The notes below the pieces were generated by a model. That model made no database searches. It saw only the letters and a program-made list of their open reading frames with translations, and was not told the origin of the DNA. From Octopus vulgaris (lineage: Eukaryota), in the NCBI GenBank assembly GCA_951406725.2, contig OX597832.1, positions 20,770,001 through 20,834,000 of the forward strand: a DNA stretch of 64,000 bases, given 5' to 3'. This document shows positions 18,930-37,499 of this stretch, in pieces. Position numbers and translations under genes: made by a program. How positions within the stretch are numbered: position 1 is the first letter of the stretch; every line of letters starts with the position of its first letter.

Positions 18930-19303
18930 CCTTTCTACTACAGGCACAAGGTCTGAAATTTTGGGGGAGGGTGAAAGTCGATTTGGTCCTTAATTTATCG
19001 ACCCCGAAATGATGAAAGGCAAAGTCGACCTCGGCGGAAATTGAATTCAGAACGTAATGACGGACGAAATACCTATTTCTTTATTGCCCACAAGGGGCTA
19101 AACACAGAGAGGACAAACAAGGACAGACAAACGGATTAAGTCGATTATATCAACCCAGTGCGTAACTGGTACTTAATTTATCGACCTCGAAAGGATGAAA
19201 GGCAAAGTCGACTTCGGCAGAATTTGAACTCAGAACGTAACGGCAGGCGAAATACGGCTACGCATCTCGCCCGGCGTGCTAGCGTTTCTGCCAGCTCGCC
19301 GCC
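18930..19303 (-). mobile_element. SINE family A dimer: head-body-tail1 + body-tail2
   Basis: Head ends at gctcgccgcc 19303; junction gacgaaatacc|tatttcttt at 19073/19074; tail2 cctttctactacaggcacaaggtctgaaattttggggg. Confidence 0.9.
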
Positions 19304-19380
19304 TTCAGTTAAAAACTATAATTAATTCATTGCTCCACTCTTCCATCGTTGACACTAGTGGCAATTTACCAACTATTTAA

Positions 19381-19778
19381 GGCGGCGAGCTGGCAGAATC
19401 GTTAGCAAACCGGACGAAATGCTTAGCGTTATTTCGTTTGCCGCTAGGTTCTGAATTCAAATTCCGTCGAGGTCGAATTTGCCTTTCATCCTTTTGGAGT
19501 CGATTAAATAAGTACCAGTTACGCACTGGGGCCGATATAATCGACTTATTCCGTTTGTCTGTCCTTCTTTGTCCTCTCTGTGTTTAGCCCCTTGTGGGTA
19601 GTAAAGAAATACGTATTTCATCTGTCTTTGCGATCTGAGTTCAAATTCTACCGAGGTCAACTTTGCCTTTCATCCTTTCAGTATCGATAAATTAAGTACC
19701 AGTTGCGTGCTGGCGTCGACCAAATCGACTGGCTCCTCGTCCCCCAAAATTTCGGGTCTTGTGCTAATAGTAAAAGAG
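19381..19778 (+). mobile_element. SINE family A dimer: head-body-tail1 + body-tail2
   Basis: ggcggcgagctggcagaatcg head; junction aaagaaata|cgtatttca at 19611/19612; tail2 cccccaaaatttcgggtcttgtgc. Confidence 0.9.
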
Positions 19779-19830
19779 AATTTACCAATGATTTGACAAT
19801 TATGATAAATAATATAAACATAATTAATAA

Positions 19831-20215
19831 TTTCAAATTTTGCCTGAAGACCAGCAATTTTGGCGGTGGGTATAAGCCTATTACATCGACCCCAGCGTTT
19901 CACTGGTACTTAATTTGTCGGTTGAAATGCAAAGTCAACCTCGACAGAATTTGAACTCAAATCGTAACGGCAGGCGAAATACCTATTTCTTTACTACCCA
20001 CAAGGGGTTAAACACAGAGAGGACAAACAATGACAGACAAACGGATTAAGTCGACTATATCGACCCCAGTATGTAACTGGTACTTAATTTATCGACCCAG
20101 AAAAGGATGAAAGGCAAAGTCGACCTCGGCGGAATTTGAACTCAGAACGTAACAGCTAACGAAATACAGCTACGCATTTCGCCCGGCCTGATAATGATTC
20201 TGCCAGCTCACGGCC
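19831..20215 (-). mobile_element. SINE family A dimer: head-body-tail1 + body-tail2-like
   Basis: Junction gcgaaatacc|tatttcttt at 19983/19984; same core as the other copies. Confidence 0.88.
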
Positions 20216-34058: not shown

Positions 34059-34409
34059 AATAATCGCAAGATTGTAATTCTCATTCCTGGGTCAGTCGGT
34101 CGATGCGATGTTTTCTCGAGCAAAGCATACCATTTCACGTTGCTCCAGCGTCGCCCCGTTTAATAGGGATTATACTACCCCCACAGAAATCGGGATATAT
34201 TTACCCCTAAACTCCACCACCACCACCTACAACAACAACGTAACACAACGCCGCATAAACCCCTCGCTTTTACTCTCATTACCATCAGAAGGAGAATTAC
34301 AACGTTGCTAATTTCCTCTAAAAACCGCCATTGCTAAAATATCTACCACAAATACTTTTAAGATCGTTAATGCCAACAGCACCAGCAGAATCGCTCGCAC
34401 ACCTCTACT

Positions 34410-34810
34410 GCCATCACCACCATCACCACCACCACCACCACCACCACTGCTACTACTACTACTACTACTACTACTACTACTACTGCTGCTGCTGCTGCTG
34501 CTGCTGCTGCTACTACTGCTGCTTCTGCTACTACTAGTACTACTACAGCTACTACTACTATGACCACCATCACGACAACTGTTACTAATACTACTGCTAC
34601 TATCACCACATCACTACCACAACTACCACCACCACCATCACCACACCACTACCACCATTACTACCACTACTACTACACTATTGTCACTGCCACCACCATG
34701 ACTACAATTACCACCAAACAAATACTACTACCACCACCACCATCACCACTACCACCACACTATTACTATTATTACTACTACTACTACTACTACTACTACT
34801 ACTATCAATA
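34410..34810. repeat. Compound (CCA)/(CTA)/(CTG) triplet microsatellite
   Basis: Direct reading. Confidence 0.92.
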
Positions 34811-36191
34811 CTATCTCAATAAACAAAGCTCTTCCTGACTACGACCGACACCCACATACTAACCTTCTCCTTCTCCCCATCCTCAGTACTCACGTGAATG
34901 TGCTTACGTAAATCGCTAGAAATAGCACCAACATCGTCCTCAAATTATACCATTTCTTTTTGACTGAAATAACTTGTTAGAGTACATAGGATATCGCAGT
35001 CCTAGATGGATTGTGGCATTATGGCTGAAAGATGGTGGGTGTATCAATAAGCTATCGTCGGTCATAGGCAACCTTGATTCAAACTGGCTTGGGGTTAAAC
35101 AACTACAACATTAACCACACCACTCCCTACTTCCACCTGAACATCCGTCACTCCTTCATTTCTGTTACTTGGTGTTCACTTACAATCTCTTTCTCTTACT
35201 CTCTCTCTCTCTCACTCTCACACACACGCAATAACACGCACACACCCACACACGTACACATGTACACACACTTACGCATTCAAGCACAGATGCAAGCGTA
35301 CACACAGCACGACGTAGCTTGACAATGGCGCTGTAATGTACGACAAAGACCGTCATCGTAATCTCACCAGCATTATCATCAGTAGCACGGACGCTATTGC
35401 TTAGCCATCGCCATCACCAACGTCACCATCAACCCCACCACCACCACCACCAGAAGAAAAAACATCATACAACCCTACCATAGGGAATCGGTAAAACATA
35501 GACACTCAGAATCGGTAATAAGTGTGGTACAAGTGAATACGGAGGATACTAGAAGCGACTACGAGTGCGCTGGGTTTTGTAAAGCACTTCGTACTGAAAG
35601 TAAGATTGGAGATAAGTCAAGACAAACGTGTAAGAAATAATCGATGTAGCATAGGTCATTTGACGGTCAAACACGAAGCAAGTCATACCGGGACACAAAC
35701 CACTGTGGATCGATAAATGCTCCAGCTAGGGTTCGTTGTAATCAAATATCATTAGGTCAAGCTGTGCCCTTTCCAAAAGAAATAATGTAAGTCCTATGGT
35801 TTTGTGGTCAACCGTAAGTTAGAAGGTCCCTTGCAAAACTTTCGAAGAGGAAGTAGGCAAAAGGACCTGCACTTATGATCGAATATCGATGGTTGAATAA
35901 TAGTGATTAGTCGATCCGGTAAATAGGGGTCTCATATCAGTGAGTGGTGGCCAGTGCGCTGTAAAGGAATCGAGAGGAAGGCCTAGAAACGGTGCGCATT
36001 GTTTCCTGATGGACTCTGCTTAATTAGGGACGATTCCATCATCATCATCGTTGTCGTCGTCGTTGTTGTCATCATTTTCAAACTAATTGTCATTATCATC
36101 AAATTTAATCATCATAGGTAGTTTGTCACCGTAGCAGCTGCTGCTGCTGCCGCGACTTCTGCTACTGCTATCAACTACCACGACTATTTCC

Positions 36192-37012
36192 ATTGTTGGA
36201 CACTGAACGAGTGCGTGCAGAACGGTTTCGATGCGGTCAGAGCGACGAAACCGTTCTGCACGCACTCGTTCAGTGTCCAACAATTTCCGACCTGTGGGCT
36301 TATGTCGAACAACTGCTGTCACGTGTGGGACGAGTCGGTTTATCAGCTGAGTCTATCGTCAATATTGTCACGCCTCCTTCCTTCAAACGGGAAGGAAGAG
36401 CTATTTTCATCATCCTTGTGGCTATGGCGAAAGAATGTATCTGGTGGACGCGTCTGAAAGGATTGGAGACAAACACTTTCCTCTCTGGTCAATCTCTCAT
36501 CAACTTCTTCAAGTACCACTTGAAAAGGAAAGTGAGAGTAGAGAGGCAAGTTTTGTCTAGCGAATGTTTTAAAAAAAGATGGGTGAATGTAGCAAGAATG
36601 GCACGTATGAATGACGAAGCCACCTTGAGCATAGTCCTATGAACCCAGAAATCGAAAACAGAGAGTTGCTTATTTGCAAAAAAAAAAAAAAAAAAAAGAA
36701 ATATAAAATGTGACTTCATTGACCGAGGTTACCGTGGTCTTTTCCGTAGGCTTTTCTTTCCACGGGTAAACCTCACCTGTCCTCCCCTTTACACTTCATA
36801 TTGACATTTCTGTGATAACGATCCCTATTGATCAATTTTTTTTTTTTTTTTTCCTCTCCCCCTTTTTTTTGTCCTCCTTCTCTCCTTTTACGATCCCTTT
36901 TGATCGAAACTCCCCCTTACTTTTTTTTTTTTTTTTTAAACATTCAAAAGAAAAGCTCTACCTTGTAATTTGTTCTATCTGTGTGCAGCCCTGTGTGGCT
37001 AATAAAGAAACA
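36192..37012 (+). mobile_element. 5'-truncated Tx1/L1-like LINE (ORF2 C-terminal zinc-finger region + 3'UTR) with 9-bp TSD and 5' foldback
   Basis: Open frame to 36642: RCGQSDETVLHALVQC...IWWTR...FKKRW (zf-RVT-like CxxxxETxxHxxxxC); T-rich 3'UTR ending gccctgtgtggctaataaagaaac; TATTTCCAT at 36185-36193 and 37013-37021. Confidence 0.9.
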
Positions 37013-37499
37013 TATTTCCATCGCTACCACCCTTGTCAGTTTTGATACTGCCGTAATAATAGTAATACCAGAAGATGTTTTTAGGACGAAAAACGATGTT
37101 TGAGAATTAATAAGAACGGGTGGGGAAGAGTGGGACATAAAGAAAGAGAAGAGTGGGAGGAAGGGAGGTGGGGAAAGAGTGAGAAAGAACGAAAGGTAGA
37201 CAAATAAAAGGAAAAAGAGGCAAAAAAAGTAAGACAAAAATGTTTGAAAGAAAGAGTAAAGATTGATTGCGAAAGATGAGAGAGAGAGAAGGGGGACAGC
37301 GACAGAAAGAGAGAGAGCCAGAGACAGAGTAAACAAGGCTGGTAGTACGTTGGGTGGTGATGTGTGAGGTATGACTTAGGGGTTGCGGTAGGAGCTGTGT
37401 TTTTACTGACACTGAAACTTGCATCGCTATCGCCACCACTGGTTTGGGGTAGCATTTGAGCTACACCACCAACAGGATGGTCAGAGGTGGGTAGAGTGC

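Follow-up and report, generated by a model that had tools for sequence, protein, structure and literature searches.

The stretch of Octopus vulgaris DNA analysed here, referred to as the window, is 64,000 nucleotides long and contains 19 body matches of a short interspersed element (SINE), family A, which is an interspersed repeat of <1 kb with target-site duplications (TSDs). In O. vulgaris 11.6% of the genome is SINE sequence, and of 900 consensus families of recently active SINEs, 893 were left without classification (PMC13282606). The family A head has A-box-like and B-box-like motifs recognised by eye; ARAGORN found 0 genes, and Rfam gave no tRNA match in 18900-20300 (for a tRNA-derived head SINEBase uses at least 60% identity over 60 nt) and no U1 or U2 match of the kind that would mark a snRNA-derived, SINEU-like head. 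An Rfam match to MIR8675 (36.8 bits, cut-off 90.8) was rejected as a microRNA, being two head-to-head SINEs at 19275-19408. The arrays, monomers and LINE sequences discussed below are listed in Table 1.

Table 1. Family A units and LINE sequences in the window
Position	Strand	Feature	Remarks
5918..6148	+	Head-body-tail1, first unit of 5918 dimer	
6149..6365	+	Second tail1 unit of 5918 dimer	From head position 15; second recurrent junction
8282..8305	-	LINE 3' end stub, 24 bp	Identical to LINE 3' end; in microsatellite; TATATA next, not TATTTC
19074..19303	-	Dimer 18930, head-body-tail1	
18930..19073	-	Dimer 18930, headless terminal unit	From position 48; tail2; internal ~21-bp deletion
19381..19611	+	Dimer 19381, head-body-tail1	
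19612..19778	+	Dimer 19381, headless terminal unit	tail2
19984..20215	-	Dimer 19831, head-body-tail1	
19831..19983	-	Dimer 19831, headless terminal unit	tail2 of different, older type
25703..25906	-	25666 array, tail1 unit	Head from about position 28
25666..25702	-	25666 array, headless second unit	Ends after 36 bp; tail2 absent
25918..26102	+	tail2 monomer	Starts at head position 33; 13-bp inverted head piece between it and 25666 array
28543..28750	-	Trimer unit 1	Head present; tail2-type 5' markers in body; 14 bp deleted from tail1
28373..28542	-	Trimer unit 2	Without head; tail1 has the 14-bp deletion of unit 1
28228..28372	-	Trimer unit 3	Without head; tail2 truncated
33854..34058	-	tail2 monomer	Site 48 unoccupied
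36192..37012	+	L1/Tx1-type LINE	5'-truncated
47830..47990	+	tail1 unit, 5'-truncated	Unique DNA (TATAAT…) at 3' end

Family A arrays have a real and regular layout, head-[body-tail1]n-body-tail2, which an earlier note on this DNA had recognised and which needs amending in detail at 25666, 25918 and 28228 (Table 1). The six internal junctions lie where that note had placed them (19073, 19611, 19983, 25702, 28372 and 28542), and at every one tail1, ending in AAAGAAATA, abuts one identical base, head position 48 (N-GTATTTC); the bases directly after tail1 are GG at 19073, 19983, 25702 and 28372, CG at 19611 and TG at 28542, with TATTTC next. As had also been proposed, all six downstream units begin at position 48 and lack the head, and within the 64-kb window no unit follows any tail2. 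Counting the trimer once, the chance that five junctions would fall on one base of a head and body of ~165 nt is ~(1/165)^4, near 1e-9, a hand-calculated figure that holds only if the junctions are independent and that draws on five arrays from one 64-kb window; no empty allele was seen. Nine tail1 ends are present in the window, seven of them inside family A at just two positions: six at position 48 and one, at 6148, at head position 15, the remaining two (6365 and 47990) abutting unique DNA. The tail end meets its target with zero extra bases between them, as expected for the start of target-primed reverse transcription (TPRT). In 4/5 arrays head and junction have unlike bases at position 48, such that there is no clean internal TSD.

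The junction at position 15 belongs to the dimer at 5918-6365, which the earlier note had set aside as an exception; it is instead a second recurrent junction, since it recurs outside the window. It is found in a contig joint of organism B (6366 to 6155) and, at exactly 11 codons, in 6/48 antisense-frame SINE peptides, a count that omits P0036, whose match to the tail is weak (p=0.01) and in a different frame, as well as, by eye, the position-15-like P0016, P0017, P0019 and P0029 and the frameshifted, position-48-like P0052. The position-48 joint was in frame in none of the 48 peptides, for which the query carried the position-15 junction and so penalised position 48, and it was absent among the 15 joints listed for two contig sets that hold at least 497 further joints. 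Raw-read samples yielded 13 and 113 matching reads per 12.9 million each, concentrated on few loci; in sample X22 the position-48 junction was seen in 6/113 matched reads, with loose letters just before 6182 and a consensus ending in the tail1 end (agreement 0.67). At one X22 locus (13 reads) tail1 pieces stand in tandem around an 18-nt repeat, which suggests that one site was used again. Contigs matching family A number 221,533 (X4) and 218,012 (X7), and although neither these counts nor summed contig depth equate to copy number, they are far above 100. Pattern scans for the tail and body gave zero matches in the viral, metagenome and genome contig sets and none in the plasmid set; an alignment for the LINE gave 91 pattern matches and zero confirmed loci, and a word-index protein search with an antisense SINE peptide returned nothing.

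The earlier proposal that tail1 is LINE-derived is borne out by its resemblance to the 3' end of the LINE at 36192-37012, with which it matches at 31-34 of 42 bases (nhmmer E 8.9e-8) and with which it has in common a stem-loop whose 4-bp stem is individually weak in either sequence; a common 3' end and stem-loop are what define a SINE with a LINE-derived tail. Given that the tails are only 74-81% identical, the LINE in the window may be related to the partner instead of being the partner itself. It begins with an inverted duplication (36192-36284 is self-complementary), retains a C-terminal ORF2 remnant at 36229-36642 and has a 3' UTR ending in the tail1-like stem-loop. The remnant is 71% identical to P0003, full-length relatives of which carry PF03372, PF00078 and PF13966; it is through these relatives that the LINE has the ORF2 of the L1 group (L1/Tx1), with APE endonuclease, RT and zf-RVT, since the remnant's own zf-RVT match is sub-threshold (E 0.049), and 0/97 matches in the search for P0003 relatives were named Tx1. 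The LINE end and TSD that had been reported are present (TATTTCCAT at 36185-36193 and 37013-37021; TATTTCC 7/7, p=0.02). A LINE preference for TATTTC does not follow, because this is a single case, offset by 2 nt from the register of the SINE junction, and at the second LINE-type end (8285) TATATA comes next, so that TAT may be tail or microhomology; TTC after TAT would occur by chance at 2.8%. Neither of the two LINE-type ends in the window, a small sample, lies within family A. The preferred site seems to be loosely defined, roughly RC|NNWAWY rather than TATTTC: all three unique-DNA SINE flanks (6365, 47990 and X22) fit NNWAWY against a background of 5.4%, and the LINE flank, when put in register, is one base off RC|NNWAWY, a motif that is AT-rich and partly post hoc.

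Outer TSDs surround the whole array in four of the five arrays tested (the 25666 array being outside the test). That of the 19381 dimer lies at 19363-19378 and 19779-19794 (14/16; 0/400 in the null), that of the 5918 dimer has the core ACAACGAT at 5908-5915 and 6370-6377 (p=0.005), and those of 18930 (p=0.04) and 19831 (p=0.048) are weak. Dating the arrays from mismatches in these TSDs was tried and dropped, as there were too few bases and the exercise was post hoc. The earlier note had listed a TSD around a whole dimer, together with equal divergence of its halves in one master element, as evidence against nesting, but nesting with an annealed join predicts such a TSD likewise, and one outer TSD per array is what such a join would leave. 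A single head and a single outer TSD per array are equally expected if a few dimeric master SINEs, each arisen once, were retrotransposed whole and the fixed junctions inherited, an explanation that also accommodates the lack of a clean internal TSD and the young look of the heads, which resemble the tail1 units. Such masters may be the octopus OK family, since the 19381-19790 dimer, at ~410 bp, is near the length reported for OK. Dimeric SINE families are moreover common (PMC3531059).

What makes us doubt inheritance from dimeric masters, which we nonetheless think the most plausible of the alternatives while still unlikely, is the heterogeneity of the terminal units. Across the same four arrays, first units differ pairwise at 11.2% of non-CpG positions and terminal units at 16.2%, and in 4/4 arrays private changes are more numerous in the terminal unit than in its partner (8/376 for tail1 vs 16/351 for terminal units overall, p=0.095). 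Terminal units also lie further from the window majority (82/669 vs 54/989 for tail1; MWU p=0.008), in a test biased by the weighting of that majority toward tail1 units. The claim that tail1 units are younger than the terminal tail2 units is weakly shown: on three measures the divergence of the terminal units is about double, each measure being weak or biased and excluding three old copies (25241, 47377 and 47639). The terminal units and the donors are of mixed subtypes and the tail2 subtypes differ, so that about one master per array would be needed, which is repeated formation at one base again. As judged from these unlike subtypes, the junction probably arose on many occasions and is not a copy from one master.

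The trimer at 28228 requires a different account. Both of its tail1 units have one common 14-bp deletion, which takes out the tail stem-loop's 5' arm and is missing from the other seven tail1 units, so that they cannot be read, as had been suggested, as two separate insertions; from the sequence, local duplication or conversion is more likely than a second independent insertion. This deletion, together with the mosaic subtype markers of unit 1 and the rearranged head-to-head pair 25666/25918, is what could be expected if DNA-level unequal crossover or ectopic gene conversion had spread one or two old junctions and lengthened the arrays, with no fresh site-specific nicking. As an explanation of the arrays at large we find this improbable, because the terminal units are diverged from the junction onward, with no young tract, because the two trimer tail1 units are 11% apart in the body, and because the hybrid is the first trimer unit where unequal crossover predicts the middle one; it also leaves the origin of the junctions unexplained.

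Heads had been assumed to belong to the resident copy. They look instead as young as tail1, with CpG decay of 3/23, compared to 8/62 in tail1 units and 10/37 in terminal units (p=0.11 for the latter two), although the difference is not significant and the heads cannot be distinguished from either age class. Young heads and an outer TSD would also result from RNA-level chimeras, in which SINE RNA is cut in two head-hairpin loops, ligated to or template-switched with tail1 RNA, and inserted at a new site; an RNA fold predicted for the 18930 head (z -2.66) places position 15 at the 5' border of loop 1 and position 48 at the 3' border of loop 2. We consider such chimeras very unlikely, since tail1 RNAs would have to end exactly at AAAGAAAUA, yet no run of four T's, the Pol III terminator, follows there; old, diverged loci would be needed as RNA donors, and zero monomers starting at position 48 occur in unique DNA in the window. 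Targeting of a DNA hairpin (cruciform) is not supported, as nick-strand folds of three heads did not surpass those of shuffled sequences (z -0.27, -1.04 and -0.65).

We favour, with belief and doubt about evenly balanced, recurrent target-primed insertion of the tail1 SINE at two hot spots, positions 48 and 15, completed by an annealed 5' join. A younger family A SINE with the LINE-derived tail1 would thus be joined to older-looking family A copies, likely by the enzyme of an L1/Tx1-type LINE, which would nick at position 48 or 15 and begin reverse transcription at the tail1 end. The new cDNA would then anneal to the resident head, leaving a single head that may often carry donor rather than resident sequence. 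Of the original interpretation, the LINE origin of tail1 and the older look of the terminal units are retained here; its TATTTC preference and resident head lack support, and its exceptional 5918 dimer and independent trimer insertions are given up. It is conceivable, if rather unlikely, that body-tail1 homes into its own family by RNA guidance, with founder junctions at 15 and 48 spreading themselves. A nested copy would be transcribed through into the resident, so that target sequence flanks the insert in the RNA; the 3' part of this RNA could pair with the nicked target and set the junction, and the 5' part could let the cDNA anneal to the head, such that monomers turn into dimers and trimers and the unit behaves in its SINE family as a homing intron does.

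The closest precedent for recurrent insertion at hot spots is the crocodilian SINEU/Tx1-Mar system, of which the octopus case would be a self-targeting variant. SINEU-3 is mobilised by a Tx1-clade LINE and 313 of 348 copies (90%) have Mariner-N4_AMi flanks, with two hot spots lacking evident similarity and tandem copies around a TSD produced by sequential insertion (Kojima 2015, PMC4494074). As there, a LINE-tailed SINE in our window sits for the most part in a single target repeat, at fixed points. The octopus case departs from SINEU-3 in that the SINE enters its own family, in the same orientation; A/B-box-like motifs take the place of snRNA sequence in the head; the head is missing from the downstream unit; and the LINE itself is not seen in the target (0/2 ends). 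Other Tx1-clade LINEs (Tx1L in Tx1D; Keno, Kibi and Koshi) have target preferences, among them for another transposon and for microsatellites (same source), whereas the two octopus LINE-type ends are discordant (TATTTC and TATATA). In R2, cDNA with homology to the upstream target can anneal there, and the junction is then seamless and has no duplication (PMC11331408; co-transcription, PMC4494074), and the same step would be needed to leave one head in the octopus arrays, although R2 is autonomous and targets 28S rDNA and the octopus step would involve a non-autonomous SINE with an APE-type LINE. The complex SINEs Alu, B1-dID and Twin (PMC3531059) likewise have two units, a fixed joint and one TSD, but spread from masters, whereas in the octopus dimers the two halves seem to differ in age and are of mixed subtypes, and arrays with n=1 and n=2 occur alongside monomers of either tail. 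Each ingredient of the octopus case hence has a precedent, and the surprise is moderate.

Among octopus elements, OR1 and OR2 are classed as CORE-SINEs, and the literature searched did not describe self-nesting of octopus SINEs; the original OK paper, Albertin 2015 and the supplements of SINEBase and PMC13282606 lay outside that search and are possibly relevant to novelty. The OK SINE, attributed to Ohshima and Okada in 1994, is reportedly tRNA-related, ~410 bp long and composite in structure, and the 19381 dimer is of similar length. If nesting of two monomers at two sites gives much of the complexity, a 'dimeric family' would be many separate events, and octopus SINEs would have to be counted and dated afresh, as to families, copy number and age profile. 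A SINE inserting into the Pol III head of its own family would retain a promoter that works as well as a safe site, and such arrays would supply very many natural junctions for the study of 5' closure in retrotransposon insertion.

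Family A in the window is a SINE of a 47-nt head and a 118-nt body, followed by either the LINE-like tail1 or tail2, and its units join one another in a pattern that is real and precise. Six of nine tail1 ends are followed by N-GTATTTC, which is head position 48 of the next unit, another enters the head at position 15 (6148), and the remaining two border unique DNA (6365 and 47990). The earlier note placed the six internal junctions correctly, although details of its layout needed amendment: the second unit of the array at 25666 ends after 36 bp, the copy at 25918 is 5'-truncated and head-to-head with that array, and tail2 of the trimer at 28228 is shortened. 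Beyond the window, the position-48 junction is carried by 6 of 113 placed reads from another sample (X22), which have loose letters just 5' of 6182 and a consensus ending in the tail1 end; it is absent from the 15 joints listed for the contig sets, which hold 497 more. At 25666-26102 the tail1 array (minus strand) meets a tail2 monomer (plus strand), with 13 bp of the head hairpin lying inverted between them, and at 18930-20215 three dimers of alternating orientation lie within 1.3 kb, two of them head-to-head and 78 bp apart.

Coordinates of junctions and repeats in the window
Feature	Position	Remark
Position-48 junctions	19073, 19611, 19983, 25702, 28372, 28542	
5'-truncated LINE	36192-37012	ORF2 C-terminal remnant
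Old family A relics (24-36% diverged) and lone tail2 fragment	25200-25360, 47377-47490, 47639-47790, 49568-49598	tail1 unit in front of none
Second abundant SINE family (by eye)	11815-12230, 46610-47040, 54020-54140, 54490-54710, 60040-60340	possibly OR1; 3' module has short stretches in common with family A body end and tail1 start (by eye)
Third SINE family	22885-23090, 52600-52850, 58655-58835	3' stretch in common with 11420-11580; middle CORE-like by eye
Near-identical 100-150 bp segment pairs by (TA)n arrays	22633-22870/23112-23237; 23555-23690/24845-25000	either local duplications or assembly repeats
Short inverted repeat	43140-43290	~55 bp per arm, small spacer; MITE-like or fold-back
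Tandem duplication	55330-55990	~345 bp
Tc1/mariner-like transposase remnant	56380-57140	decayed (by eye)

We give roughly even chances to a recurrent process in which a tail1 SINE would be inserted by target priming at either of two preferred head sites, position 48 or 15, the 5' join then being closed by annealing. Tail1 units had been proposed to be younger than the terminal tail2 units, and three measures agree with this in direction, none being decisive. Tail1 bodies diverge from the window majority by 5.5% and tail2 bodies by 12.3%, with a p value (0.008) biased by the dominance of the nine tail1 units in that majority. When four arrays are compared pairwise outside CpG sites, first bodies differ by 11.2%, their tail1 by 5.9% and terminal bodies by 16.2%; first units hold 8/376 private changes and terminal units 16/351 (p=0.095), the terminal unit having more in 4/4. 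CpG decay is 8/62 in tail1 against 10/37 in terminal units (p=0.11).

Outer target-site duplications (TSDs) surround the dimers at 19381 (14/16, 0/400 in the null), 5918 (p=0.005), 18930 (p=0.04) and 19831 (p=0.048); a search found none at 28228, 33854 or 47875. They are predicted both by annealed nesting and by retroposition of whole dimers. Subtypes differ between arrays, in tail2 among terminal units and in tail1 among first units, and therefore a single master does not explain the arrays; several dimeric masters are a possible but doubtful source. That the head is the resident's own, as proposed, is not demonstrated, because heads look like young units, without significance (CpG decay 3/23, pairwise difference 7.0%), the position-48 base differs between head and junction in four of five arrays, and body positions 13 and 15 carry tail1-type markers in three first units and tail2-type markers in their terminal units. 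Tail2-type 5' markers occur among first units in 28228 unit 1 only. Annealing such as that of R2, whose cDNA pairs with the upstream target (PMC11331408), could leave one head of donor sequence.

Both junction sites lie at loop edges of the predicted RNA fold (z -2.66), as chimeras arising at the RNA level from cuts in head loops would have it, an origin we consider improbable. RNA-guided homing through read-through transcripts is unlikely. Targeting of the sites by DNA cruciforms was unsupported.

The 5918 dimer, formerly set aside as an exception, has a junction that recurs. In organism B a contig joint connects the end of tail1 with head position 15 (6366 to 6155, separated by 5 head-like letters), and in 6 of 48 antisense-frame SINE peptides tail1 is matched significantly at a distance of exactly 11 codons past the body, the 5918 spacing, a figure denoting recurrence and not frequency, as the query itself contained the junction. 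That search also gave one 22-codon spacing and one weak match in another frame. In protein databases, many predicted octopus-like "proteins" (P0006-P0053) are antisense readings of family A; such a stretch near the start of the 706-aa P0009 is likely a gene-model artefact or exonisation. Another X22 locus (13 reads) has tandem tail1 pieces around an 18-nt repeat starting GGAATT. The motif suggested by the two SINE sites is NGWAWY. SINE flanks in unique DNA match NNWAWY in 3/3 (background 5.4%), one of them also having the G, and both LINE ends deviate at a single base each. The preference is loose, AT-rich and partly post hoc.

The LINE remnant is 97% identical to an Octopus bimaculoides protein over 37 residues, which identifies the DNA as octopus, and 71% identical to the database protein P0003. 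Because the full-length relatives of P0003 have APE, RT and zf-RVT domains, its sequence assigns it to the L1 group; recently active O. vulgaris families include L1-Tx1, according to PMC13282606. As had been proposed, tail1 resembles the LINE 3' end (31-34 of the last 42 positions; nhmmer E 8.9e-8), and both have a predicted 4-bp stem directly 5' of the A-rich end. A TATTTC preference of the LINE, with its TSD TATTTCCAT, is not demonstrated, since the register differs (LINE +1, SINE +3) and TATATA follows the other occurrence of this LINE end, a 24-bp stub at 8282-8305. The coincidence of TATTTC at LINE end and SINE junction is suggestive: flanks of both LINE ends and of the SINE end at 47990 start with TAT, and across window sites TTC follows TAT in 2.8% and TATTTC falls within 0-2 nt in 0.3%. 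A part for this LINE in tail1 SINE insertion is unproven. At the 5' end (36192-36284) the element's first bases are repeated in inverted orientation, giving a self-complementary stretch of 93 bp that resembles a snap-back junction and overlaps the left TSD by its final 2 bases.

Both tail1 units of the trimer lack the same 14 bases, a loss that takes away one arm of the tail stem-loop; the other seven tail1 units keep them. Two independent insertions, as originally read, are thus unlikely. A better candidate, despite an 11% difference between the bodies, is local duplication, conversion or a single tandem template. As an account of the junctions generally, DNA-level recombination or conversion seems quite unlikely.

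The data comprise this 64-kb window of microsatellite-rich animal DNA (GC 34.6%), one read and contig comparison and one peptide search; prokaryotic, viral and metagenome collections yielded no family A or LINE copies. Family A may be the octopus OK SINE. Dimeric SINEs are common (PMC3531059), and self-nesting of an octopus SINE found no account in the literature searched, including the accessible parts of PMC4824008, PMC4758252, PMC8967140 and PMC13282606, a coverage that is incomplete. The Tx1-driven SINEU-3, with Tx1-Mar, uses two hot spots in another repeat and forms tandem copies (PMC4494074). Family A likewise has two fixed junction sites in a repeat, but that repeat is its own family and the head is lost; the self-family target and the head loss are the new parts.
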